From: a virus | Direction: 5' to 3' (one strand) | Length of the DNA: 64,000 nucleotides | Virus record (IMG/VR): IMGVR_UViG_3300045988_042432 | Part shown: positions 1,755 to 62,388 of the stretch, one piece after another | How the letters are laid out: each line of letters opens with the position of its first letter | Position numbering within the stretch: position 1 is the stretch's first letter | Translations under genes and position numbers: made by a program | Notes under the pieces: model-generated | The model's input: only the letters and a program-made list of their open reading frames with translations | The model's database searches: none | What the model was told of the DNA's origin: nothing

Positions 1755-3710
1755 TTATAGTTCAACCCAATCCCATGCAGCTTCTAGTTTACCAATAGCG
1801 GCATTAAGTGAATCACCAGCAGCAATTGCACCTGTATCTGACGGTTTGGTATAACCAGTCATTGCAGTTACCTTATTAGAAGCCAGATTGGCTAGAGTAG
1901 TAGCTAGTGTAACGTTAGCAGAACCATCTAAAGAAACACTTCCAGTTACACCACCACTAACTGTGATAGTACGAGCAGTAGCCCACTTAGCAGCAGTATC
2001 AGCCGCGCCAGCAGTAGCAGGTTTACCAATACTAACTGTTTGTTTAGAACCTCCAGAAGGAGTTACGCTGAATGAGCCGTTTCCTCCAACGAACGTATAA
2101 GTAGTATTAGTATCAGCTCCTGGAATACCCAAAGCTGTAATATCAGCCTTAGTAACAGCGGTTACTGAAGCAACGTGGCTAGTAGAATCTGTGCTGAATT
2201 TATAGAATCCAGAAGTTTTACTAGGAGCACCTCCAGCAGGGTGAGTATAAACTGTGTCCTTCTCTGCTTGCCATGCAGGACCACTAGCAGTGGCTTTCAA
2301 TACGTATCCAGCAGTACCATTAGCTAGAGCTTTAACAGTAGACCCACCGTTACCTAAAATTACTGCGTTAGCAGTTAGGGATTTGCCAGTAACAGCACCG
2401 TCTAAGTTTCTCTGAATAACTGACCAGTCACCATTTGCAGCAGTCGTTCCAGATTTAACACAGATAATCATGTCACCTGCTTCACAGCCTTCGCCCGCAA
2501 AGTTACCAGCAGCCTTAACTACGTAAGTATCTCCAACTGTGTGATTAGCTGGAAGTTCAGTTACATCACCGTCTGTGCCAATAGTTCCTTTGAATCTAAG
2601 TGCTTGAGCAGCAGAAATCTTACTTCCAATCTCGTTAATTACAAATGCAGTAGTTGCAATTTGAGTAGTATTAGTTCCACCAGCAGCAGTAGGAGCTGTA
2701 GGAGTTCCAGTAAACGCTGGGCTTGTAAACATTGTAGCCTTAGATTCATTTGTTACGTTACCTAAGCCTACATCAGCTTTAGTAACAGTAACATTAGCAC
2801 TAAGTGCATGTCCGTTTACAGTTCTAGTATTTGGAACAGCATTATCAGCCTTAGTACCTTGAGCAGCAGTTGCATATGCAGATGATGCTGTATATGCAGC
2901 AGAACCTAATCCTTTAACAGCAACATCAGTTCCGTCAATTGCAATAGTACCATTAGCAGAACCAGAAGCAGCCGTGGTTGCAGCACCATTAATTGTTACT
3001 TTACCAGTAGCATCAGCTGTAACTGTTACTTTACCAGTACCAGTAATTTGATGTGAGCTTCTTACTGCACCATTCTCAATTAAGTTCAAGAATGTAGTAG
3101 CATTAGTAGTTGCTGCATTAGCTGTAGCTGTAGCAGAAGCGCCAACAACATTCTTAGCTTGCCAGTTAGTAAATGAAGGAGCAGCTGGCATAGTCATTGT
3201 AGTGGTTCCTTTAGCTGTAACGTGTCCTTGTGCATCATAAGTAATGCTAGGAATAGTAAACGTTCCACCAAATGCTAATGTCTTACTATTATCACCTTTA
3301 GCTGTGCCAGCAGTTACTGAATTAGAGTGATTAATTGTAGTACCTTCAATAGAGATACCAGAACCTTGTGTGTATTTAGTATCTGTAGCGCTAATTGTTA
3401 CTCCATCTGTTCCGACAGTGATATTTACATTAGAGCCTTTGTTGAATTTAAGAGTTCCGTCATGAGAAGGAGACTCTGCAACATTAGTACCGTCAGAAAC
3501 TTTAGAGAAGGCCTTGGCAGCCTGTAAAGCTGCCACAGCACTCTCCAATGAAGTAATTTTGCCTTTGTAAGAATCAGGAATAGCGTAGAACGTTCCATGA
3601 GTATAAATCTCCTGTGAATCTTTAATGAAAACAATACTATTGGTGTATTGTTCTTGTAGTTCACTGGTAAATGTGGACTTCTTCGCTACGTGTACAAACA
3701 TTTTCTCCAT
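1755..3710 (-). CDS. tail fibre protein (Ala/Thr/Gly-rich)
   Basis: 651-aa ORF. The N-terminal module KKSTFTS...SIVFIKDSQEIYTHGTFYA is paralogous to the N-terminus of 241..1689. Confidence 0.7.
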   Translation of the reverse strand: MEKMFVHVAKKSTFTSELQEQYTNSIVFIKDSQEIYTHGTFYAIPDSYKGKITSLESAVAALQAAKAFSKVSDGTNVAESPSHDGTLKFNKGSNVNITVGTDGVTISATDTKYTQGSGISIEGTTINHSNSVTAGTAKGDNSKTLAFGGTFTIPSITYDAQGHVTAKGTTTMTMPAAPSFTNWQAKNVVGASATATANAATTNATTFLNLIENGAVRSSHQITGTGKVTVTADATGKVTINGAATTAASGSANGTIAIDGTDVAVKGLGSAAYTASSAYATAAQGTKADNAVPNTRTVNGHALSANVTVTKADVGLGNVTNESKATMFTSPAFTGTPTAPTAAGGTNTTQIATTAFVINEIGSKISAAQALRFKGTIGTDGDVTELPANHTVGDTYVVKAAGNFAGEGCEAGDMIICVKSGTTAANGDWSVIQRNLDGAVTGKSLTANAVILGNGGSTVKALANGTAGYVLKATASGPAWQAEKDTVYTHPAGGAPSKTSGFYKFSTDSTSHVASVTAVTKADITALGIPGADTNTTYTFVGGNGSFSVTPSGGSKQTVSIGKPATAGAADTAAKWATARTITVSGGVTGSVSLDGSANVTLATTLANLASNKVTAMTGYTKPSDTGAIAAGDSLNAAIGKLEAAWDWVEL

Positions 3711-23834: not shown

Positions 23835-26800
23835 TGAAAGTAATACCTAAACTACAACAAGGAAACACCATAGAGTCCGATAATACTAAAGTAGTTAGGC
23901 CAGAAATTCATGAACCTATTAAAGCTAAACCTAGACAGTATTCCATTGTAGATTTAGGTGGAGAACCTTCTAATGATACCAGGTCAGCTGCTGAAAGAAA
24001 TAGAGACTATTGGCATCCTATTAAGGGAGCTAAAGCCAGATTCAAGGCTTCTATGTCCAATGAGACTAATCCTCTAGTTGGAATAGAAAGAACTATACTT
24101 CCTTCAGCAGCTGGTGCTGCATTAGTAACAACTCCAGCCGCTGTTGTAGGAGGAGCTTTAGGTAATATGACTGTGGATAAGCTTACCGGGGGCTGGGGTA
24201 ATTGGTTAGAAGATAAGACTGGCATTCCGTCTGAAATTGGAATTTATACTAATCCAGGAGCTTGGTATGGTGGTGCTAAAGGATATAAGATTGGAAAGAA
24301 CAAGCTAATAACTAAATCAATTAAAGGTGATGCTGACCTAGCTTGGAATCCTATTAACAAGAATCATTGGATATTTAATAAGGAAGCAAGGACTCCTTCT
24401 AATATAGCAATGGCAACAGCTAACAGAATTACTCCATTTCTATCTAAGGTAGAGAAATTACCATTAAAAGTGGCTGCTTATAAAGCTGCCAAGAGAACTA
24501 ACGGTAATGCATCAGTAAGTTTGCAAGATATAAAAACAATGCCAGCCGACTACACAGGTTCTTCAATATTAGGTGGAGGAAATTTAGAAGGTAGGAATCT
24601 ATTAGCTAAATATATATTTGATGAGAATCCAGTAGTTAAAAGAATGTTCTTTAATAAAGCTACTAGTAATATCAAACCTATTAGCCGTAATGAAGCAAGG
24701 AGAGGATTTAGTCATGGGGATAGATATGAGCAGCTTTATCCTGGAGTTCATAACAGAAGATACGAAATGAGTGCAGTAGTACCCTCTGGTAGACCTCTTA
24801 AGTTTGAGAATGTTACAAAGTTTACTGATTATGCTGGAAAGAATCCAATCGGCAAGGTTGTTGGTAAGGAGACTGAACCAGTAATGCGTATGGGAGATAA
24901 AGAGTTTATGACCTTTAGGCAGCCAGGAACCGATTATATAGGTCCTATTGATGACGTTGCTGGACACTTGGTTAAGTTTCAAATGAATAAGGGTAAGCTT
25001 AGACAGACTTCTCAAGATATGTGGAAATTTAATCCTGCTGACTATGCTAAGAGGTGGAATGATTCTCCTAATACTGCTAACCAAGTTAGGCTTATTAAAC
25101 AAGCTGCATTAATGGATAAAGTAGGTCGTCCTTTCATATTGCAGCAATCTAATCCTATATGGATTGAAGGTAAGTCTGTTAGAAATCCGGAATTGGTAAC
25201 TATGGCACATGGTGGAAGATTTGATTTTAAGAAGTCCCCTCTGCTAAAGAAACAAGAAGAGATTAACGGTAAGAGGGATATGCGTAAGAAGTTCATCAAA
25301 TCAAGTCGCCCAACCTATAAGAAGCGAATCAAGAAAGCTCAACAAGGAATGAAGTTCGTAAGTTATAATCCAGTAAGTAATCCTACAATAGATTACACTG
25401 ATATTACTAATCCTATTAATCCATTTAGTGAGTATAATTATAATACAACTTACGATAAACCAGAAGCTTTAGTAGTACCAGTAAGAGATACTGAAGAAAC
25501 TGATGTAGTAGCTAATAATCCTACAGTAGAGCCAGTAATTAATAAGCCAGTAGCTAGTAATCCTGTTACCAATAAACCTGTTACTGCCAACTCAACTTGG
25601 AAGAGTCCATATACTAACAGAAGACAATGGTCTACAGAACTTATTAATGCCTATAAGAAGGCAGGTATTACTAATGATAATGCAATTAGAATGCTATTAG
25701 CACAAGACGCATTAGAATCTAGTTGGGGTAAGTCTGCACAAGGTAAGTACAACTTTGGCAATTTAACTACTGGTAGTTCATGGAAAGGTGATTATGTAAC
25801 TGGTAATGATAAAAATGCTAGAGGTGAAGCTATTAAGCAGAAGTTTAGGTCTTATAATTCTATGGATGAGTATGCAGCAGATAAGATACAATTCTTAAAG
25901 AGACTATATGACTTTGATGAGAATGATGATATTAATAAGTTTGTAGCTAAGCTTACTGGTTCTAATAAAGGTAAGAGAAGATATGCAGAAGCTAAGGAGT
26001 ATGCCAATTCATTAAGAGGCGTGTATAATAGTTTCAAAGCAGGTGGTATTATTAAATATCAAGAACCAGCACAACCTATAGCTAGAAGAGATGCTATTAA
26101 GGATTACAGACCTGAAATTCCACTTAGTCCTATTAAGCAACCAGTTAAACCTTATATGCCAACTCAACAGCCAGTGCTATCTTCTGATAATAGAACTGGT
26201 TGGGAGAAAGAAGTATCTAGGCAAATCAAAGCTGATAAAGCTAAGAATGATAAACTTTATGGTAATCAGCATACTTGGAACTGGTCTGCACCATTTACCA
26301 ATGCTAGAATTACTAAAGATAATGCTAGTGCTATATTTGATTTTGATAAGTCAGCAGCTATGAGTACATTTGCAATTGGACAGGGAATTGCTAGTCCTGT
26401 TACTACTGCAACATCTATAGCAGGTTCACTAGTTGGAGCTGGTATAGGTAATAAGGTAGCAGGAGAGAAAGGTGCTCTAGTCGGTGGATTTGTTGGTGGA
26501 ATGGTTAATCCTAGGTTTAGATTTGGGAAGAGTAGTTCTACTAAGAGACGGGAACATGGTAATGTAGCAGATAACGTTAATTTACATAGTAAGATGAATT
26601 TCGATGATTATGACCAAATTGTTAATGCAATAGATAATGAGGAGGAGTTATATAGACTTTATCTACAGAATGAAACTGTAGCTAAGAGAATACGTGAAGT
26701 TTCTCCGTCTTATGTAAAGGAGGTTAATAACTTTATTAAGACTAAAATCAAGAAGAGGTTTGGTAAGCCAACTAATGGTAATTATCAGGCTGCCAATAGA

Positions 26801-38270: not shown

Positions 38271-39098
38271 ATGAAGATTATGGAATTATCACTTGTTAAC
38301 AAACTGAAACAATTACCAATCGAACCGACTTACGTGGTTACAGAGAAGAATGCCGACATATTGAACGGCCTTCATCTTCTTGAGACAAACAGGGAAATTA
38401 AGTCTAACAAGGTAAACGACCTAGTTAAGGCTATTCAAGAAGGGCTCTTCATTCCTCCTATCATTGTGTCTGCTGGAACATTCACTGTCATCGAAGGTGC
38501 TCACAGAACATCTGCATATAGAGAATGCTTGCGCAGAGGTATTCCCTTTACTATGAAGTTGTACTTGGTAAAGGATGTTGAAGCAACCGAAACGTGTATG
38601 CTTATCAATAACACACAGAAGAGTTGGAAGGCAAATGACAGACTCATATCATATGTCAAGCAAAAGAAGAGCTCATACATAATACTGAAATCCTTCATGG
38701 AGAAGCATTCTAAGTATTTCATGAAAGGTACAATGTATAACGTGACGGCAGCTCTAGCACTTCTAAGTCCTCTATCTTCTAATAATGCTGAAGCTGCATT
38801 CAGAGACGGCACCTTGGTTATTACGGAAGAAATGGTGAAGAAAGCTATGCCTACGCTTAATCAACTGAAACTTATTGGCGAAATCCTTGGTGCTAGAAGA
38901 GGTACAGGAGAGGCTGACTTGTCTCCGTTTAGGAGATATAGAATCAAGGATTGGATACGAGCCAGAGATATTATGAATATTTCTGTAGACCAGTTCATGA
39001 ATCGGTTGAAGCGTAGAGTCGATTCCGGTAGGTGGGAAGAACCTTCAGAAAAGAATTGGTTCAATTCTTACATAGAAGTGGCATCGTTAAAACGCTAA
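38271..39098 (+). CDS. ParB-like nuclease-domain protein
   Basis: 275-aa ORF with LFIPPIIVSAGTFTVIEGAHRTSAYRE, which fits the ParB/Srx N-terminal domain pattern. Confidence 0.55.
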   Translation: MKIMELSLVNKLKQLPIEPTYVVTEKNADILNGLHLLETNREIKSNKVNDLVKAIQEGLFIPPIIVSAGTFTVIEGAHRTSAYRECLRRGIPFTMKLYLVKDVEATETCMLINNTQKSWKANDRLISYVKQKKSSYIILKSFMEKHSKYFMKGTMYNVTAALALLSPLSSNNAEAAFRDGTLVITEEMVKKAMPTLNQLKLIGEILGARRGTGEADLSPFRRYRIKDWIRARDIMNISVDQFMNRLKRRVDSGRWEEPSEKNWFNSYIEVASLKR

Positions 39099-39124
39099 GG
39101 AGTATTACATTTCCATATTTTTAG

Positions 39125-39151
39125 AACCTGGCAGTGAGTAGGTTAACTGCC
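39125..39151 (+). promoter_or_regulatory. R-hairpin copy 5
   Basis: AACCT, stem GGCAGT/ACTGCC, loop GAGTAGGTTA. Confidence 0.7.
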
Positions 39152-39160
39152 AACTTATCT

Positions 39161-39673
39161 ATGACTAATGAATTAGCAGAGGAATACAGAGAGCTTAAAC
39201 GTAACTTAATACCCATATTGTTACAGACATGTGGTAAAGAGCGTTTATGTGATGCTGTAGACAAATGGTTATTAGTAAAATCCGGTATCAAAGTAATATC
39301 TAAATCATGGTATGAAGGTGGATTGCCTGGTAAAGAGTATGTGGTAATTAAGGATACTTCAGTACTTGCTAGCTATCCCTCTAAAGGTGCTAATTATGAA
39401 CATCGTCTTGCGAGGTATAGAGCCTACACTAAGGCATTTAACCATGTAAGAGAAGAAGGAATACCTTTGGCTCCTATACAGGTTGATAAATTTACCAAAG
39501 TACTTGTCAATGGAGTAACACTATGCCTTATCGGAACTTTTGAAGGTAAATCAGAGAATGACTTTATCAAAGAGATATCTGGTAAGGTTTACGTAAAGGC
39601 AGGTACTGATTCGGTAGATGTTATTAATCTACAAACTAGAAGAACTAAAAGATATAAAGTTCAGTACACATGA
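39161..39673 (+). CDS. hypothetical protein
   Basis: The track ORF starts at a GTG inside the hairpin; first ATG at 39161 (MTNELAEEY...). Confidence 0.6.
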   Translation: MTNELAEEYRELKRNLIPILLQTCGKERLCDAVDKWLLVKSGIKVISKSWYEGGLPGKEYVVIKDTSVLASYPSKGANYEHRLARYRAYTKAFNHVREEGIPLAPIQVDKFTKVLVNGVTLCLIGTFEGKSENDFIKEISGKVYVKAGTDSVDVINLQTRRTKRYKVQYT

Positions 39674-40014
39674 AACTATACTTTAACTATACACAGAACT
39701 TCATCCTTGCAGATTGTGAGGGTGAGGTTATTGATATGAGAACTGGTCAGCCCTCTGATGCCAAACTACAATCTCGTCTTAATAGCTACAAAGATGAAAC
39801 TACATCTAAGTGGATTCCTATTAAGGACTTGGGAGATTTGTATGATATGTCAGATAGTGATGTGACAGTTTCTGGCAGCTTAATCACGATGTCCATTGAC
39901 GGACACAAGGTTACAGCTAGACATAAGGTGTCAGCAGGAGTTAATTATGTACAACTGACTGGACACTTCCCTCGCTACTTCTGGAAAGGATTTGCTAACT
40001 TATTAACTAAGTAA
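39670..40014 (+). CDS. hypothetical protein
   Basis: 114-aa ORF with an ATGA overlap. Confidence 0.6.
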   Translation: MKLYFNYTQNFILADCEGEVIDMRTGQPSDAKLQSRLNSYKDETTSKWIPIKDLGDLYDMSDSDVTVSGSLITMSIDGHKVTARHKVSAGVNYVQLTGHFPRYFWKGFANLLTK

Positions 40015-40016
40015 CA

Positions 40017-40250
40017 ATGTTATCGCAGATACAATTTAGGAAACAGAGAATACCATGTACTCTCAATCATCAATCTGTTACTTCTCGTGAAGGTAAATTG
40101 CTTCTTGGGTTTGGAACTAACCAGCCCATGATGCAGCAAGCCGAAAGACAAATTGCTAAACATCAGGTTCCTTATGAGACATCTGATTTAAACGGCATGC
40201 TTTCAATCATTATCGATTATTCTATTATCAGCAGTGTAACAACAATCTAA
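40017..40250 (+). CDS. hypothetical protein
   Basis: 77-aa ORF. Confidence 0.5.
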   Translation: MLSQIQFRKQRIPCTLNHQSVTSREGKLLLGFGTNQPMMQQAERQIAKHQVPYETSDLNGMLSIIIDYSIISSVTTI

Positions 40251-40260
40251 CCTTTAAACA

Positions 40261-40503
40261 ATGGATATAAAGAACAGCCCTATAGTTAAACATGCAATTA
40301 ACAATGACAAATCTCTTCTTCCCGGAATCATCGCTTACAGCTGCAAAGAAGCTATAGTAATCGCTAAGAGAGAATGCGGTGATTTTATAGACTTCGCCAA
40401 GGAGTGGATACAGTCCTCCAAACAGCTTTGCGAAGAAGAGAACATTCCATGGGAACAGATTAGGACAGCAACTGGAGATTCTATTGATAATTATATATCA
40501 TAA
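40261..40503 (+). CDS. hypothetical protein
   Basis: 80-aa ORF. Confidence 0.55.
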   Translation: MDIKNSPIVKHAINNDKSLLPGIIAYSCKEAIVIAKRECGDFIDFAKEWIQSSKQLCEEENIPWEQIRTATGDSIDNYIS

Positions 40504-40521
40504 TCTCCTTTCCGTCTAAAA

Positions 40522-40595
40522 GAGAGTCTGATGAGTCGTTGAAAATTACGACGAAACTTCACTGTGATTTGGCACGTCACGGTGGAGTCACTCTT
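40522..40595 (+). ncRNA. type I hammerhead ribozyme
   Basis: GAGAGU-CUGAUGA-[GUCGU/ACGAC helix II]-GAAA-[11-bp helix III]-U-C(cleavage after 40589)-ACUCUU. All core nucleotides are present, and helix I pairs GAGAGU with ACUCUU. Confidence 0.85.
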
Positions 40596-40612
40596 AACCA
40601 ATATTAGTAATT

Positions 40613-40774
40613 ATGAAACTCACTAAGAATAAGAAAGACAATATAATAATTAGTTCTGCCATTGGAGCATTAGTAATTATTAATATCATGTTGCCTACAG
40701 CTGGCGATTTTACATATGTAGCCGGAGCTATAGGTATTGTTGCGGCCATAGGAGTCTGGTTCTTACCAGACTAA
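40613..40774 (+). CDS. 53-aa membrane peptide (not in the ORF track)
   Basis: Own translation: MKLTKNKKDNIIISSAIGALVIINIMLPTAGDFTYVAGAIGIVAAIGVWFLPD. Confidence 0.45.
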   Translation: MKLTKNKKDNIIISSAIGALVIINIMLPTAGDFTYVAGAIGIVAAIGVWFLPD

Positions 40775-40815
40775 TCAAATAATTAATAAATCAAACTCTT
40801 TAAATTTAGAAGGAA

Positions 40816-41439
40816 ATGAAGAAATTACAAGAACGCCTGAAAGCTGGTATTGATTTCAATCCAAAGAAAGACCCATGCTATGATTCTATCGTAGAAGAAG
40901 CTGAAACTATTCTTGGGCATGTGCTCGATGCCGCTGAAGGTAAAGAAGTTCCTTACAAGAACTTCACTGTTGGTGGCGGTTATGACGAAAGGAAAGACCG
41001 TGAAATCGTCATTGTTCGTGGTGACGGTGAAGACTTGCTCGTTATGGAAGTTAAAGACGAATCTATTCGTGTGCAACCTCATGAACGTCATGCTGTCACT
41101 CTGAATGAGGATGACGAAGCTTCTGCCCGTGAAATCTTTGACATTCTTATGAAAATGAGAGACCAAAGACAAGGCTCTACATTTAAAGTCGAAGAAGGCA
41201 AAAAAGCTTTGTTTGAGTTTCTGAAGGATATATCTAAGGCTATCGGTGCTGATGTTGAAGGTGTTGAAACGCCAGAAGAGCTATTAAAAGCTCTCAAGGC
41301 TAGAGAAGAAGGCAATGAAGGAGCCATAGAAGATTTGATGCGTGAACAACGCATTCATCTTACTATGCACATGCTTGACTGTTCCCGTGAGAAGGCAGAG
41401 AAGATTGTAAAGAACTTTGAAGAAGCTGTGAAGCGTTAA
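40816..41439 (+). CDS. acidic hypothetical protein
   Basis: 207-aa ORF. Confidence 0.65.
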   Translation: MKKLQERLKAGIDFNPKKDPCYDSIVEEAETILGHVLDAAEGKEVPYKNFTVGGGYDERKDREIVIVRGDGEDLLVMEVKDESIRVQPHERHAVTLNEDDEASAREIFDILMKMRDQRQGSTFKVEEGKKALFEFLKDISKAIGADVEGVETPEELLKALKAREEGNEGAIEDLMREQRIHLTMHMLDCSREKAEKIVKNFEEAVKR

Positions 41440-41449
41440 TAATGCCAAG

Positions 41450-41518
41450 AGAGGATTAGTTTAATGGTAGAAGGCTAGTTGCGAACTGGCGGAGGGAGTT
41501 CGAATCTCCCATCCTCTC
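41450..41518 (+). tRNA. tRNA, anticodon GCG (Arg) if my fold is right; compact core
   Basis: Acceptor AGAGGAT/ATCCTCT, anticodon arm GCTAG-TTGCGAA-CTGGC, T arm GGGAG-TTCGAAT-CTCCC. Confidence 0.65.
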
Positions 41519-41600
41519 CCAATCATTTTAAAGTTTTGTATAGTTTAGGCTTGCCCCAGTCATGTTGTGAAACACACTTGGGCTTTTAATTAATAAGTGT

Positions 41601-41954
41601 ATGAATCAGAATGCAGTTAATTCTTTAAGGAATGCCAAGAGGCATATTCTTATTAGCGATGTTGATAAGTTCAATAGCCATTTATTGTATTACATATTAA
41701 ATGTTATATATGGAACACATGACCATATTAAATTAAATACGATACGTGAAAGACTTGAACGTGAGCTTAAATGGTCATTGGATGAGCATATTCCTGATAA
41801 GGATGTAATTAGAGAATGGCTTGACAATGATTACCCTCTTATATGCATAACAGAGTTATCGTTTGACAGTTGTATTAAACTTGCCAACGATTTCCCAGAT
41901 TATGAAATTGTAGTTTATAGTTGGATGAAACATGAAGGGAACTTACCATTTTAA
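41601..41954 (+). CDS. hypothetical protein
   Basis: 117-aa ORF. Confidence 0.6.
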   Translation: MNQNAVNSLRNAKRHILISDVDKFNSHLLYYILNVIYGTHDHIKLNTIRERLERELKWSLDEHIPDKDVIREWLDNDYPLICITELSFDSCIKLANDFPDYEIVVYSWMKHEGNLPF

Positions 41955-41977
41955 ATGGAATAAAAATAACTCCTAGG

Positions 41978-42044
41978 CTATTAAGTCTGTAATGGGTACG
42001 CTACTCAATGTAGCACAGGAAGATACTGATAGCTTTTTTGTTCA
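41978..42044 (+). ncRNA. candidate small RNA A2 (short version of A1)
   Basis: TAATGGGTACGC at 41990-42001, GCACAGGAAG at 42013-42022, closing stem CTATTA/TGATAG followed by T6. Confidence 0.35.
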
Positions 42045-42090: not shown

Positions 42091-42609
42091 GGGCCTAGAT
42101 TTGGTTTTGACAGGCGATTACAAGTTAGTAAGACGTGTAGAGTTCGTACCAACTCTTTAATAATGATACAGCAATTTAAGTGGAAACACTGAAGTAAGAA
42201 TGGCAGCCTAAGCTGCTGGCTTATCTATTAATTTAGCTCTAAGTCGGGTTAATTGGAGAGACCTAGAAACAGAAGAGGTGTGGGAAGAAGCGTATAGAGC
42301 AGCCCACTTAACTTGAAAGCCAAAGGTTAGTAAAGCTGAAATCTCCACTACCTATCTATGGGTTACAAATAGAAACGTTCTCCAACGTAAATGGAGTGGT
42401 GGAGCGACCGTTCGGTCAAGCCCAGTTTGGTAGTTTGTGAACAACTAAGTCGTAGCCCTACGAGGGAGACGTAATTGGTGAATTAACACTCGGCTTCTTA
42501 GTAAAACTACCTACATGCTGAACTCAACAGCTGATGTAATAAAATAGAGACACACGTAATCTTATTAATGAGGGTTGTTTGGACGGCGGTTCGACTCCGC
42601 CTAGGTCCA
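42091..42609 (+). ncRNA. ssrA: tmRNA (ssrA-like)
   Basis: The 5' end GGGCCUAGAUUUGGUUUUGACAGGCGAUU resembles the canonical tmRNA 5' end. The 3' end has GGCGG-UUCGACU-CCGCC-UAGGUCC-A. The acceptor GGGCCUA/UAGGUCC carries G3:U70. A possible tag frame is GGA AAC ACT GAA GTA AGA ATG GCA GCC TAA (42182-42211, GNTEVRMAA). Confidence 0.7.
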
Positions 42610-42637
42610 CTATTATTAACGTTTAAATATCAATTTT

Positions 42638-44485: not shown

Positions 44486-44865
44486 ATCCACTATTGACGA
44501 ATAGTGGTAGCAAAACTTGGTCTGAAGAACCAGTAGACATATTCCGGAGTATGTCTATGACTTAAAGGCTATATCAAAGAGTTGAAACCTGTATCTATTC
44601 GAACAGTAGGAGTTCACCTGATTAAGCATCAGAAAACAGTAGTGCAAATCTACTATAGATATTGTGTAAGAGAGAATCTACACGGTCTGTATTATATAAT
44701 CAGCATGCAGATAGGTCACCAAGCAAACCTCTTTCCTGCCTGGTCAAGTGTGCATTACGGTCTGTAAGTGGCGAGCGGGTTAACGTATGTCCGATTGCCG
44801 TAATGCCGCTTGTTTATTGTTTAGAATAAAGAAAGACTCTCATAACAATAAATTTAAACAAAGAG
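44486..44865 (+). ncRNA. ORF-poor hairpin-rich segment (candidate structured RNA)
   Basis: Hairpins include CCACTATT/AATAGTGG, TTGGT-CTGAAGA-ACCAG (a mimic of the tRNA-Phe anticodon arm) and TAGACATA/TATGTCTA. GC content is higher than in the flanks. Confidence 0.3.
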
Positions 44866-46560
44866 ATGGAAATGAAAGGAGCACAAAGGCCAAGGAGGCC
44901 TTACCCTAATGCCGCACGTCAAAGGCGGGATGAGAATAAACCTAAGTTTGTGGATAATAATCAGTTATTCATAGACCAGTTTGTTAATCTTAAGAAATGT
45001 CTTCAGCCACGTACCTACGTGCAAGTGGCTAAAGATATGTATCCTTTATGGAAAGCTAATCCATTACTATGTACTAAGTTTACTGCATATACGAGAATGA
45101 TAACTCGTAAATGTAGAATAATTACCCCGGAAGGAGTTATACAACTTGATACACAGCAAGGAGAAGGTTTGAAGAATGAAGGTATAATGAGAATGTTGTG
45201 GTTGGCAATCTATCACAAACCCACATTCCATGCCAACATTGCTTATTTTGCAGCAGCTGGATGCTGGAAAGATTTCATTACTATGATGGCTTTAGATGTT
45301 CAACTCCATGGCTTTAAGCACAGATTGGATTGGGACTTCTTCAAGAAAGTCATATTCGCAGGTCTTGCCAACGGTCAGACATGTGATTTAGTAAAGAAGT
45401 ATCTTCCTCGTGTTCGTTCCAGTGTTGCATGTAAGACAGATGAGGCAAAAGCACGTAATACAGTAGCCAAATTCTTGGCGGAAGGCCTTTATGGTAAACC
45501 TAAGGATGAAGGAGACTATTCAACCTATCGTAAATATAGGAAGATGAAGAATAGCGGGAAAGCAGCCCAATGGCAGCAGTTAATCAGTCAAAAGAAATTC
45601 TTGGAAATCGATTTTGACACTGTTACTGGAAAGGCACTGGCACAGCTAGTAGGCTCTAAATTCCTCAAACATCAAGGTCTTAAAGAGAAGTATCAGAACT
45701 GGTTGAAGAACCGTAAGAAGCCCTCTAATAGCGGATTTCTACATACTCTGTTCAAACCATACGGATTGGATAAAATTGCCGAAGAGATTCCAGAATTTAT
45801 GGAAACTTCTATTAATGCAAGTTTCAATGTATTTGTTGATAATGCTAAACGCAATAGAGTAGCTCCGTTGTTGGTAGTAAGAGATATAAGTCATTCTGCT
45901 AATGGTGAGATAGAGAATAGCGAAACATCTGCTTACAGTTTGGGTAAAGTATATGCTTTATATCACTCTGAATTACTTCCTACAATATTCAAAAACTCCT
46001 ATGCCGTGTTAGAAGATAACATGGTTCTACATAAGTTCAAAGGTCAGAATGTCATTGAGAAATGGAAAGCTGACAAAGAAGAAGCATTATGCCAGAATCC
46101 TTCTATTATTAATATAGCAGAAATGCTGTGTAAAATGAAAGAAGATTATGGTGTGGATGAAGGAGAGTTCCCTAGAGGTTGTGTGGTAATTACTAACCAT
46201 ACATATTTTACCAAGTTGAACAACCAAGCATTCGTGGAATTTAAGCAAAGACTGCTTAAAGCAAATTTCAGTAAGGAATTTGTAAGAGCATTCAAAGTTA
46301 TCATTTGGAGAGTTCCTTTAGCATATAAGGGAAGACCTAATGTGGCTTTGGTTCCAGGAGTGTCAAATTGCTTCTTAGTAAATGGACTTAATAATTCAAC
46401 ATCCTCATTTATTACTGGAGAGAAGAGGTTCCAGGTGCCTAAAACCACTAGAGACATCTTTAAGCATGCTATGAATCAAGAGTTGCTTAATATGATGATT
46501 CTAGAGAAGGATGTTGTCAAGAAGAATGCAAGCGTGCAGAAGAAGCCTGTGAAGGTCTAA
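44866..46560 (+). CDS. vWA-domain protein (MIDAS-like DISHS); N-terminal region possibly DUF2828/TROVE-like
   Basis: 564-aa ORF with ...PLLVVRDISHSANGE... in the C-terminal half. The N-terminal call is from memory only. Confidence 0.5.
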   Translation: MEMKGAQRPRRPYPNAARQRRDENKPKFVDNNQLFIDQFVNLKKCLQPRTYVQVAKDMYPLWKANPLLCTKFTAYTRMITRKCRIITPEGVIQLDTQQGEGLKNEGIMRMLWLAIYHKPTFHANIAYFAAAGCWKDFITMMALDVQLHGFKHRLDWDFFKKVIFAGLANGQTCDLVKKYLPRVRSSVACKTDEAKARNTVAKFLAEGLYGKPKDEGDYSTYRKYRKMKNSGKAAQWQQLISQKKFLEIDFDTVTGKALAQLVGSKFLKHQGLKEKYQNWLKNRKKPSNSGFLHTLFKPYGLDKIAEEIPEFMETSINASFNVFVDNAKRNRVAPLLVVRDISHSANGEIENSETSAYSLGKVYALYHSELLPTIFKNSYAVLEDNMVLHKFKGQNVIEKWKADKEEALCQNPSIINIAEMLCKMKEDYGVDEGEFPRGCVVITNHTYFTKLNNQAFVEFKQRLLKANFSKEFVRAFKVIIWRVPLAYKGRPNVALVPGVSNCFLVNGLNNSTSSFITGEKRFQVPKTTRDIFKHAMNQELLNMMILEKDVVKKNASVQKKPVKV

Positions 46561-48866: not shown

Positions 48867-48938
48867 GCCCCATTACTTCAGTGGTAGAAGAGCAAATTCT
48901 AAACTTGTATGGCGTTGGTTCGAGTCCAACATGGGGCA
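48867..48938 (+). tRNA. suppressor tRNA, anticodon CTA (reads TAG)
   Basis: Clean cloverleaf: GCCCCAT-TA-CTTC-AGTGGTA-GAAG-A-GCAAA-TTCTAAA-CTTGT-ATGGC-GTTGG-TTCGAGT-CCAAC-ATGGGGC-A. Confidence 0.8.
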
Positions 48939-48940
48939 CT

Positions 48941-54772: not shown

Positions 54773-56734
54773 ATGGAAATGACATCATTAATTATCGTTG
54801 GTGTAGTTGTACTAGTTGCAATCATCACTATCATTGGGATTCTATCCCGCTACCGTAAATGTAAATCTGACGAATTGTTGGTAGTTTATGGTAAAACAGG
54901 CTCTCACAAAGAGAAAGTTAGCGAACGCGACGCTAAAGGTAATCTGGTTGACAGAGAAGTTGAAATTAAAACTGCCAAAGTTTATCATGGTGGTGCAGCT
55001 TTTGTATGGCCGATTATACAGGGTTATGAAGTAATGTCAATGCAGCCGATTCAATTGAATCTTGTATTGAAGAATGCTTTGTCAGCTCAAAATATTCGTG
55101 TAACTATCCCTACCACTGTAACTGTTGCTATTAGCCAAGAACCGCTGATTATGCAGAATGCTGCTAATCGCTTACTAGGTGCTGATGATGACGTTAAAGA
55201 AAGTTTGATTTCAGATATTGTTTATGGTCAGATGAGGCTTGTTATTGCTTCGATGACTATTGAAGAGCTTAACTCTGACAGAGACAAGTTCCTAGCTCAA
55301 GCTAGAGACAATATCAATACAGAATTGAACAAACTTGGTCTTTATCTGATGAATATCAATATCAGTGACATTCAAGATGCTGCTCAATATATTGATAATC
55401 TTGGTAAGAAAGAAGAGACTAAAGCAAGAGCGCAATCACAAGCTGATATCGCAGAAGAAGAGAAGAAAGGAGCAATCCAGATAGCTCAAACTACGAGAGA
55501 GAAGGAGATTGCAATTGCAGCAGCTACTAAGGAGCAAGAAACTATAGTGGCTGAAACTAACAGGGAGAAAGAAGTTGCTATTGCTAAGACCACTAAAGAG
55601 AAAGAAACTCAATTGGCCGAGCAGCATAAGGAGCAGCAAATTGCTGTTGCAGAGCAAAGAAAGGAACGTGAAATTGGTGTGGCTACAGCCCAAACTGAAG
55701 AAGCATCCAAAGTTGCCGAGCAAGAAGCATTAAGAGCTGCTAAGATTGCAGAGCAGCAAGCTTATGCAACTGCTAAAGAAGCAGAATTTACTGCCAAAGC
55801 TGAAGCCGCTAAGGCAGAAGCAGAAGCAGAGAAGGAAGTTCGTATGGCAGTAGCAGCACAAAACCAAGAAGCTGAAACTGTTAAAGCACAACAGGAAAAG
55901 GAAGCTAAAACTGCACAGTATGAATCAGAAGCCCGTCAAAAGGCAGCTGAAGCAGAGAAAGCAGCAGGAGTAGCTGAACAGAAAGCTACTATTGAAGTTT
56001 CCAAAGCTAAGGGAGAAGCAGAGAAAGCTAAAGCTGAAGCAGAAAGAGTAGCTGGTACTTCTAAAGTTGAAGCTCAAATGGCAGTTGCTAAAACAGAGCA
56101 AGAACGTCAGGTGGAAGTTAACGAAGCTAAAGCTAAAGCTGAAGAAGCTAAGCTTAAAGCTGAAGTAATTATACCTGCCGAGAAAGCCAAAGAGAAAGCT
56201 AAAATTGAAGCAGAAGCTGTTAAGAGTGTAGCCATTCTTGAAGCAGAAGCGGAAGCAGCTAAAATCTTGAAAGCAGCAGAAGCTAAAGCAAATGCTACTA
56301 AGATGCAACTGGAAGCAGAAGCTGAAGGTACCAAGAAGAAACTTCTTGCTGAAGCTGAAGGTAAGAAAGCATCTTTAATGGCAGAAGCTGAACAGAAACA
56401 GGCAATGGAAATGGCTCCGGCTCTTGCAGTTGAACATATGATTAAATCAGGTATGCATCCTGAAGCAATCGTTCAATATGCAATGACCGACAGGTGGAAA
56501 GAAGTTGCTGAAGCCAACGCTAAGGTGTTTGAACATATCCAGCTTGGTAATGTTACTGTGTATGGTGATTCCAATACTGCTGGGCAGTTCATGGCTAATA
56601 TGGCTAAGAATCTTGCTCCTAGCTTGGAAATTGCTCGCAATTTGCCCATTGCAGATTCGCTTAAGCAAATAATCACTGGCAAGAAGCCGGAAGAATCACC
56701 AGCTAAAGGTGATGAATTTCCTCCTGTAAAGTAA
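54773..56734 (+). CDS. flotillin-like SPFH/band-7 protein
   Basis: 653-aa ORF with an N-terminal TM helix, an SPFH-like segment (VYHGGAAFVWPIIQGYEVMSMQPIQL...TIEELNSDRDKF) and about 250 aa of Ala/Glu/Lys coiled coil. Confidence 0.7.
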   Translation: MEMTSLIIVGVVVLVAIITIIGILSRYRKCKSDELLVVYGKTGSHKEKVSERDAKGNLVDREVEIKTAKVYHGGAAFVWPIIQGYEVMSMQPIQLNLVLKNALSAQNIRVTIPTTVTVAISQEPLIMQNAANRLLGADDDVKESLISDIVYGQMRLVIASMTIEELNSDRDKFLAQARDNINTELNKLGLYLMNINISDIQDAAQYIDNLGKKEETKARAQSQADIAEEEKKGAIQIAQTTREKEIAIAAATKEQETIVAETNREKEVAIAKTTKEKETQLAEQHKEQQIAVAEQRKEREIGVATAQTEEASKVAEQEALRAAKIAEQQAYATAKEAEFTAKAEAAKAEAEAEKEVRMAVAAQNQEAETVKAQQEKEAKTAQYESEARQKAAEAEKAAGVAEQKATIEVSKAKGEAEKAKAEAERVAGTSKVEAQMAVAKTEQERQVEVNEAKAKAEEAKLKAEVIIPAEKAKEKAKIEAEAVKSVAILEAEAEAAKILKAAEAKANATKMQLEAEAEGTKKKLLAEAEGKKASLMAEAEQKQAMEMAPALAVEHMIKSGMHPEAIVQYAMTDRWKEVAEANAKVFEHIQLGNVTVYGDSNTAGQFMANMAKNLAPSLEIARNLPIADSLKQIITGKKPEESPAKGDEFPPVK

Positions 56735-56821: not shown

Positions 56822-56909
56822 GGAGAGTTGGGTGAGTGGCTTAAACCAGTCCCCTGCTAAGGGACCGAACCTCAAAAGGGTTCCGCTGGTTCGAATCCAG
56901 CACTCTCCG
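56822..56909 (+). tRNA. tRNA-Ser (GCT)
   Basis: Acceptor GGAGAGT/ACTCTCC, anticodon arm GTCCC-CTGCTAA-GGGAC, long variable arm, G73. Confidence 0.85.
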
Positions 56910-56961
56910 CGCTGGCTAATAAGAGTTTGCGAAAATCATTATTAACCTAATTATTAGAATT

Positions 56962-61320: not shown

Positions 61321-62388
61321 ATGATAAATATAGTTTTAGGTAGTTTCTTCGGCGATTGCGGTAAGGGACAGACAGTTCACAACTTATGTAACAAGTACAT
61401 AGGTAAGCGAGAGTCTGTGTTAGTAGTCAGGTTTAGTGGTGGACATCAAGTAGGACATACTGTAAAGCATGGAGACATGATGCACACCTTTAGTAACTTT
61501 GGCAGCGGAACCTTACTTGGAGTGCCGACGTACTGGTCCGAATACTGTACTGTAGACCCAATTACCTCTATGTTGGAGGGTGCAGACTTAGCTAAAATGG
61601 GAGTTCATCCCATTGTTCAGTATCACCCTCACTGCCAAGTTGTAATTCCCTTCGATGTCTATTCCCAAGTTAATAACGAAGAGAACTTACGACATGGTAC
61701 TGTAGGTACAGGGTTTAAAGCTTGTTTGGACCGAGTTAAGGCAGGATACAGCTTAACAGTTGTAGATTGTATGAATCCTTACATACTGCGTGAGAAACTA
61801 AATGCCATAGTGGATAACTATTACAACATGTCTAGTAAATATCCTTCGATAGACCTAGACAACTGGTGTAGGTTAGCACATGCTTATTTCTTACATACAG
61901 GTACGGTTAATGAAGATTGCTTGTTGAATTATGATAACCTAGTGTTTGAAGGTTCACAGGGAATATTGCTTGACCAAAGATTCGGCATAATGCCTTATTG
62001 TACTCCGTCTAATACAACTTCACAAAACGCTTACGAGCTGTTGCGGAAAGCAGGTATACGTAAAGAAATCCAAACTTGTTATGTAACTCGTCCTTATATA
62101 ACAAGGCATGGTAACGGCCCGTTTCCTTCTGGAATGTCTGTTAGGGATGTCGATGACCCTAATAATAAGTTCAACGATTTCCAGAAGACGCTTAGGGCTA
62201 TTGATTTCGACAAAGACCTATTCGCACACAGTGTACGCATTAACCGTTCATTTAAGGTTCCTTATAGGAATGAACGAACGGAGAAATTGTACGTATCACA
62301 TTGGGATGAAGCATCTGACGCAGAGCGAGAAATGCTAGCAAATTTATGGATGTCGATACAGCCCATGATATTCGATAAGTTAGTTTAG
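61321..62388 (+). CDS. short adenylosuccinate-synthetase (PurA)-family enzyme, PurZ-like
   Basis: 355-aa ORF with FFGDCGKG, VVRFSGGHQVGHTV, FEGSQGILLDQRFGIMPYCTPSNTT and YVTRPYITRHGNGPFP, which align to PurA landmarks. The GTP-specificity (S/T)KLD box and the C-terminal roughly 80 aa of PurA are missing. Confidence 0.7.
   Translation: MINIVLGSFFGDCGKGQTVHNLCNKYIGKRESVLVVRFSGGHQVGHTVKHGDMMHTFSNFGSGTLLGVPTYWSEYCTVDPITSMLEGADLAKMGVHPIVQYHPHCQVVIPFDVYSQVNNEENLRHGTVGTGFKACLDRVKAGYSLTVVDCMNPYILREKLNAIVDNYYNMSSKYPSIDLDNWCRLAHAYFLHTGTVNEDCLLNYDNLVFEGSQGILLDQRFGIMPYCTPSNTTSQNAYELLRKAGIRKEIQTCYVTRPYITRHGNGPFPSGMSVRDVDDPNNKFNDFQKTLRAIDFDKDLFAHSVRINRSFKVPYRNERTEKLYVSHWDEASDAEREMLANLWMSIQPMIFDKLV

Follow-up and report, generated by a model that had tools for sequence, protein, structure and literature searches.

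The window analysed here is a 64,000-nt stretch of viral DNA from the IMG/VR record IMGVR_UViG_3300045988_042432. Between positions 38271 and 41521 of its plus strand, we found a string of ORFs of 275, 179, 114, 77, 80, 53, and 207 aa followed by a tRNA-Arg gene, with spacers of 35, -4, 2, 10, 109, 41, and 10 nt in that order. The 109-nt spacer is the largest in the gene string, the others ranging from -4 to 41 nt, and it is filled by a sequence with the layout of a type I hammerhead ribozyme (40522-40595, plus strand). The gene upstream of this element is an 80-aa ORF (40261-40503, plus strand) ending in a TAA stop at 40501-40503. The gene downstream is a 53-aa ORF (40613-40774, plus strand) with two predicted hydrophobic segments and a maximum 19-residue Kyte-Doolittle hydrophobicity of 2.16. 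Both ORFs are also called in public assemblies. The hammerhead begins 18 nt after the upstream stop codon, and its predicted cleavage site, 40589/40590, lies 23 nt before the next ATG. A first-pass annotation of this DNA had located a hammerhead between the 40261-40503 ORF and a 53-aa membrane-peptide ORF at 40613, and we found the location as claimed; the peptide has two predicted TM segments.

The variable sites of the 80-aa and 53-aa ORFs among relatives fall mostly in third codon positions, which hold 6 of the 8 variable sites in the 80-aa ORF. Pfam and PHROG gave no match for either ORF and no function for the neighbouring ORFs. There was no plus-strand terminator-like site in the gene string, and sigma-70-like promoter hits were below the shuffled expectation. 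Thus, the genes on both sides of the hammerhead are likely to be co-transcribed.

The anatomy of the element was read directly on the plus strand. Helix I has 6 pairs, formed by the 5' arm GAGAGU (40522-40527) and the 3' arm ACUCUU (40590-40595), the latter being the 5'-OH end of the downstream fragment if the RNA is cut. The first core strand, CUGAUGA (C3-A9, 40528-40534), leads into the helix II hairpin (40535-40552), in which GUCGU and ACGAC form 5 pairs closed by the loop UGAAAAUU; RNAfold gives the same hairpin. The second core strand is GAA (G12, A13, and A14; 40553-40555). It is followed by the helix III hairpin, which extends from A15.1 to U16.1 over 33 nt (40556-40588) and has 12-13 pairs, also in RNAfold. 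Direct reading gives A15.1:U16.1 plus 11 pairs, two of them G-U, with a 9-nt loop, and RNAfold adds one U-G pair for a total of 13 pairs and a 7-nt loop. Directly after helix III, position 17 is C40589 and not G, as is characteristic of hammerheads, and the scissile bond is predicted at 40589/40590. The pairs next to the core are all standard, with G40535:C40552 at 10.1:11.1, U40527:A40590 at 1.1:2.1, and A40556:U40588 at 15.1:16.1. Helix I is open and helices II and III are closed by loops, which is the type I topology.

The element is preceded by the A-rich flank UAAAA (40517-40521), and its 3' arm is followed by the A/U-rich remainder (40596-40612) of a 23-nt leader (40590-40612). A40521 and A40596 correspond to positions -7, which is near-invariant, and +7 of the hammerhead family described below. 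As the upstream ORF is read in a different frame from the UAA at 40517-40519, something other than translation termination explains why the A-rich flank is kept here.

The three-way junction was both the MFE and the centroid structure of 40510-40612 in RNAfold (-27.4 kcal/mol, z = -2.3), and it was retained in the MFE fold of the 281-nt context. Base for base, these results agree with the first-pass annotation, which had described the core, helices I to III, and C17 of a type I hammerhead at 40522-40595. Its pairs G10.1:C11.1 and A15.1:U16.1 were borne out, and its cleavage position between 40589 and 40590 is the one obtained by direct reading. By every sequence-defined criterion, the element is a genuine type I hammerhead.

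We also evaluated how often such a sequence occurs by chance. A type I descriptor was defined by the core strands CUGANGA and GAA, loop-closed helices II and III, helix I, and any nucleotide but G at position 17. On both strands of the 64-kb window, it matched only 40522-40595. In 100 dinucleotide shuffles, we found 0.12 relaxed matches per shuffle and no strict match with the helix lengths of this site. Descriptors for types II and III returned nothing across the window beyond the 40522-40595 site. Rfam at E<=1, the covariance model R1 described below, and the descriptors agreed that no second ribozyme of any class is present in the window.

The Rfam models recognized the element poorly. Searched at gathering thresholds, the whole window gave 22 hits (RAGATH-34, one tmRNA, and 20 tRNAs), none of them a hammerhead. 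A second search of a 321-nt region at an E-value threshold gave RAGATH-1-hammerhead as the best match, full length, with 23.8 bits against a gathering score of 56.3. Hammerhead_3 was the best match kept from clan CL00010 (Hammerhead_1, _3, _II, HH9, and HH10), none of which reached gathering; it was partial, covering the core and helix II, with 21.3 bits against 48.5. The first-pass annotation had named a covariance-model score below threshold as grounds for rejecting the element, and this is formally what Rfam returned. We do not take the shortfall as a refutation, because R1 matched the element with an E-value of 1e-7 and the family-specific flanks match as well. Instead, we judge the sub-threshold scores to reflect a sensitivity gap in Rfam and not counter-evidence. 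The element is not a member of the RAGATH-1-hammerhead family either, since neither its score nor the architecture of its stem II fits that family.

The family to which the element was compared was collected by two scans. In scan 1, IMG/VR was searched with a pattern consisting only of UAAAA, the two core strands, and their spacing. This gave 88 loci, and 66 matches fold as complete type I hammerheads, with the lineage of the window included. The covariance model R1 was built from 38 phage type I hammerheads, excluding the lineage of the window. Against the window, R1 gave a single hit at 40514-40603 with 42.9 bits (E = 1.1e-7), which is mid-range among the scores of other members (31.7-55.7 bits).

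In scan 2, the core and the helix II loop (CTGATGAGTNNNTGAAAATTNNNACGAAAC) were fixed, and helices I and III and all flanks were left free. The pattern matched at least 119 loci in viruses. A further 66 lie in bacterial genomes and MAGs, most of them from gut Clostridia and a few from Bacteroidales. Among the viral matches listed, 93 of 107 distinct sequences fold as type I, and the remainder are mostly visible type III permutations with the same helix II. The identical loop UGAAAAUU is carried on 8 different helix II stems.

The family shows strong covariation in helices I and III, including the helix I columns of the element. In the model-fitted alignment A2 (89 matches, 73 distinct rows), 96.5% of the cells are standard pairs, compared with 33-41% when the 3' partners were slid by 1-3 columns. 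Changes on both sides were found in 13 of 16 pairs of A2, and the observed covariation score was reached by 0 of 500 shuffles. On alignment A1, the proportion of paired cells is to some extent circular, as the R1 sequences had passed a pairing filter. A2 is itself fitted to the model, and the fold completion of the pattern-only matches (93/107) is the cleaner number.

The flanks of the hammerheads are also conserved. Among the scan 2 matches listed, 71 of 72 non-redundant type I members have A at position -7 before CUGAUGA; A or U occupies position -8, and either purine occurs at position -6. Of these 72 members, 52 have A at position +7 after N17 and 63 have C as N17, and helix I has 5-6 pairs. 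The element agrees on all of these features (A40521, A40520, G40522, A40596, C40589, and 6 pairs). Its R1 score, A at -7, 6-bp helix I, and loop II are those of the type I set with the UGAAAAUU loop. Thus, the element belongs by its sequence to an abundant and apparently uncurated subgroup of gut-phage type I hammerheads with this loop. It is unusual within the subgroup only in its long helix III and its offset from the upstream stop codon; helix III measures 33 nt against a family median of 18, and a length of at least 33 nt is reached by 4 of 85 among the matches listed.

A tertiary contact of the stem II loop with stem I makes hammerheads fast at physiological Mg2+, and both loop II and the A at -7 are conserved across the family. 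A pseudoknot between loop II and the helix I tails, as is present in many hammerheads of Perreault et al., was considered but is not supported. Family-wide, Watson-Crick pairing of loop II with either tail was no better than with shuffled tails. A duplex of at least 4 bp between the 5' tail and loop II is possible in 57% of the family, compared with 47% (sd 5%) after shuffling, and the 3' tail shows a weak excess (39% compared with 27%, sd 4.5%). In the window, the matches between loop II and the tails reach 4 bp only.

To describe the conservation of the element, we compared close relatives of the phage. Searches with the flanking proteins found 15 IMG/VR contigs of 67-162 kb from the same phage lineage, with protein identities of 91-100%. 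A large protein collection contained 179 matching proteins at E 0.001; the best 120 of the 179 are 89-99% identical, and the contigs bearing them reach 184 kb. Searching with both flanking proteins, we found no distant syntenic relatives, and the matches listed were all at least 89% identical. The 15 IMG/VR relatives show no variation at 40520-40556, which includes the CUGAUGA core strand, or at 40588-40612, and the five variable sites of the element all lie within distal helix III or its loop. Two changes in helix III keep the pairing (U-A to U-G and U-G to U-A), and G40564A, found in 8 of the 15, produces an A-C mismatch at the eighth pair. One further relative differs in the helix III loop and carries an A-to-U change at 40602 in the leader. 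This is the sole change outside distal helix III and its loop in the 16 close relatives read. Beyond the 15 IMG/VR contigs, essentially the same element is present on two others. In all related genomes, the element occupies the same place between conserved ORFs. This pattern is what would be expected of an active hammerhead. Only close relatives (at least 89% protein identity) were found, so the divergence is too small to reveal lineage-specific compensatory changes.

Upstream in the gene string, the region of the 179-aa ORF (39134-39673) varies at 62% of its sites in the 15 relatives, compared with 3-15% for its neighbours. Some relatives probably carry a different gene at this position.

The phage is a crAss-like phage of the human gut, and it looks Bacteroidota-associated. 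Its large terminase shares about 30% identity with the terminases of cr1_1, cr50_1, and other crAss-like phages, and it is 100% identical to that of the GenBank scaffold MT835470.1 (human faeces, Mexico). Positions 89688-116138 of MT835470.1 match only positions 1-26079 of the window, with 96-99% identity, and positions 1-70000 of that record have nothing in common with 26080-64000 of the window. R1 found no hammerhead on MT835470.1. The break at 26079 indicates either mosaic genomes or that one of the two assemblies is chimeric. Neither 39000-42000 nor 40261-41439 matched an annotated phage record at the DNA level.

The window encodes several other RNAs. A full-length RAGATH-34 RNA (RF03103; 120.9 bits, E = 4e-19) is located at 44488-44595 on the plus strand, 270 nt upstream of a 564-aa ORF (44866-46560). 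The only match of this ORF is PHROG 850, 'RNA-binding protein', with none in Pfam or NCBIfam. RAGATH motifs were defined through their association with the gene contexts of hammerhead and twister ribozymes, and the distance of 3.9 kb between the RAGATH-34 RNA and the hammerhead fits this association. A tmRNA (RF00023, 85.8 bits) is located at 42091-42612 on the plus strand; at 522 nt compared with the 374 positions of the model, it contains large insertions.

An array of 23-25 tRNA genes extends over 41450-62653 on the plus strand. One of them (48867-48939) has the anticodon CUA of an amber suppressor and is labelled Pyl by ARAGORN, which suggests a possible reassignment of TAG. TAG is the rarest stop codon, ending 7 of the 72 ORFs with 100 aa or more, but code 11 leaves the long structural ORFs intact, so recoding of TAG is only a possibility. 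At 56822-56925, ARAGORN called a tRNA-Ser(GCU) on the plus strand overlapping a tRNA-Arg(UCG) on the minus strand, and the antisense tRNA-Arg(UCG) call is probably an artefact. A 653-aa SPFH/Band 7 protein (88 bits; 54773-56734, plus strand) is encoded among the tRNA genes. The plus-strand ORF at 61321-62388 resembles adenylosuccinate synthetase (Pfam PF00709, 114.9 bits), and its PHROG, 1211, has a PurZ-type name. With the NCBIfam PurZ model, it scored only 19.3 bits where the cut-off is 300, and its scores with the PurA equivalogs also fell far short of their cut-offs. The ORF thus encodes a divergent relative of PurA or PurZ.

We then examined how family members are placed relative to genes. 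The norm is a hammerhead followed by a short leader and an ATG. Among the matches listed, the cleavage site precedes the ATG by a median of 31 nt in the first set and by 40 nt in the second, compared with 23 nt in the window. In 33 of 56 matches listed in the second set, helix I starts 0-2 nt after the upstream stop codon; this gap is 18 nt in the window. This adjacency was measured on the scan 2 set, whose flank was free, since scan 1 is biased by the TAAAA in its pattern. At a distance of 0-2 nt, a terminating ribosome would occupy both helix I and the core. Perreault et al. 2011 do not use the term 'stop codon'.

Downstream ORFs of the family are TM-like in 4 of 78 matches listed. This is below background, showing no enrichment of membrane proteins, and a preference of the family for preceding small membrane proteins was therefore rejected. 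For the same reason, the two-TM peptide is not a family trait.

Several viral contigs carry more than one family hammerhead. L203 has three type I hammerheads within a few kb (1474-1555, 1920-1996, and 3251-3327), as does L139 (101-171, 1025-1096, and 1613-1697). L214, L207, L167, and L160 also carry two or three. On these contigs the hammerheads flank single genes, an arrangement already described in 2011. Unlike these multi-copy contigs, the phage of the window has one hammerhead only.

Taken together, this data suggests, with a probability of roughly 0.8, that the element is a genuine type I hammerhead that cuts a polycistronic transcript between two small plus-strand genes of a crAss-like phage. 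Once this transcript is made, whether nascent or complete, the 74-nt element would fold into the three-way junction. The 2'-OH of C17 (40589) would then attack the adjacent phosphate, and the RNA would be cut between 40589 and 40590. The upstream fragment would contain the 80-aa ORF, and its 3' end would consist of the hairpins of helices II and III and carry a 2',3'-cyclic phosphate. The downstream fragment would carry the 53-aa membrane ORF, the 207-aa ORF, and the tRNA-Arg; it would begin with a 5'-OH and a free 23-nt A/U-rich leader released from helix I. The two halves of the operon would likely be uncoupled in stability and translation.

Other explanations were weighed against the same observations. 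The ribozyme may be conditional, its folding or cleavage being controlled, for instance, by a factor bound to the long helix III or by ribosomes on the upstream ORF, so that it sets the level or timing of the two-TM peptide. The 33 of 56 listed family stops within 0-2 nt of helix I, where a ribosome would cover helix I and the core, are consistent with gating, as is a helix III of 33 nt against the listed median of 18, and regulated cleavage in phages was raised as a possibility by Perreault et al. (PMC3088659). However, the stop codon in the window lies 18 nt before helix I, probably beyond the footprint of a terminating ribosome, and distal helix III is the least conserved part of the element and tolerates a mismatch. 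We saw no aptamer-like conserved element, and the 4 of 78 TM-like genes downstream of listed family members also argue against this reading. We therefore consider conditional cleavage unlikely. It is still a little less probable that the hammerhead acts as a gated switch in which cleavage reports translation of the upstream gene, a terminating ribosome unfolding the ribozyme where the stop abuts helix I. If this were true, the phage could use its long helix III or its 18-nt offset to adjust when the two-TM membrane peptide is expressed.

The possibility that the sequence no longer cleaves or resembles a hammerhead by chance, and is at most a passive cluster of RNA hairpins in the spacer, draws on the Rfam scores below gathering and on some phage hammerhead-like sequences that were inactive when assayed (legend of Fig. 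S7 of PMC3088659). Against it stand a core consensus without deviation, the R1 E-value of 1e-7, and the 0 strict matches in 100 shuffles. In every relative read, no change was seen in the core, in helix I or II, or in the near flanks, while the helix III loop drifts, and the family-specific flank nucleotides are retained. These observations make a non-cleaving sequence very unlikely. Hammerheads are also common in selfish elements, and the type I topology suits ligation chemistry (PMC3088659), so the element could be part or a remnant of a small mobile or circular RNA that excises itself by ribozymes instead of processing mRNA. But the window has a single ribozyme of any class, leaving no unit that could be excised, and all related genomes have the element at the same location between conserved ORFs. 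This origin is the least credible of all, and cleavage of a polycistronic mRNA by a genuine type I hammerhead is the reading we prefer.

With this element, a crAss-like human-gut phage lineage with assembled contigs of up to about 180 kb gains a well-supported hammerhead, alongside its roughly 25 tRNAs, its tmRNA, and its RAGATH-34 RNA. Elements of this kind are already known as a large group of phage hammerheads; the element is real but ordinary, and the knowledge of ribozymes is unchanged. Useful by-products of the analysis are the sensitivity gap of Rfam and the stop-codon adjacency at the family level. The Rfam gathering thresholds miss an abundant phage type I subgroup with the same stem II loop, which occurs at no fewer than 119 loci in viruses and at 66 in bacterial genomes. 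A single-copy site beside defined small genes would also be a simple test case for the function of phage hammerheads.

Phage hammerheads flanking genes were previously shown to cleave in vitro and in vivo in E. coli (PMC3088659), and in a 2019 review, what hammerheads do in bacteria and phages was still listed as unresolved (PMC6765202). The element shares its catalytic core and its intergenic site in phage or prophage operons with the hammerheads of Perreault et al. 2011 (PMC3088659). The role proposed there, in which long phage transcripts are cut into gene-length mRNAs, is the same as the one we propose for the window. That study stresses type II hammerheads, pseudoknots, and tandem copies, whereas the window, from a crAss-like gut phage, has a single type I copy with no supported pseudoknot. 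HHphage of the haloviruses HF1 and HF2 likewise has its site within a polycistronic phage transcript, and a transcript 5' end that maps within 3 nt of the hammerhead site supports its activity in vivo (PMC3088659). Its cleavage site is 13 nt upstream of the start codon, compared with 23 nt in the window. HHphage belongs to archaeal viruses and is a core or structural variant needing high Mg2+, whereas the core in the window is fully canonical.

Among the Rfam families, the RAGATH-1 hammerhead (RF03152) is similar in its type I layout, the A-rich stretch before a short helix I, and its full-length alignment. The RF03152 model has a stem II of about one pair and a 5' hairpin, whereas the element has a 5-bp stem II and no matching 5' hairpin. 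RiboJ-type insulators provide a functional comparison. In these, a hammerhead placed before a coding sequence cuts away the RNA in front of it, so that the transcript starts with a short, defined 5'-OH leader and downstream expression no longer depends on the upstream context. Unlike the element in the window, RiboJ is synthetic and derived from a plant satellite RNA, with an added hairpin that exposes the ribosome-binding site.

The genomes hosting the phage type I set with the UGAAAAUU loop are mostly those of gut Clostridia, in contrast to the phage of the window, which looks Bacteroidota-associated. The element resembles this set in its loop II, covarying stem II, A at -7, C17, 5-6 bp helix I, and short leader before the ATG.
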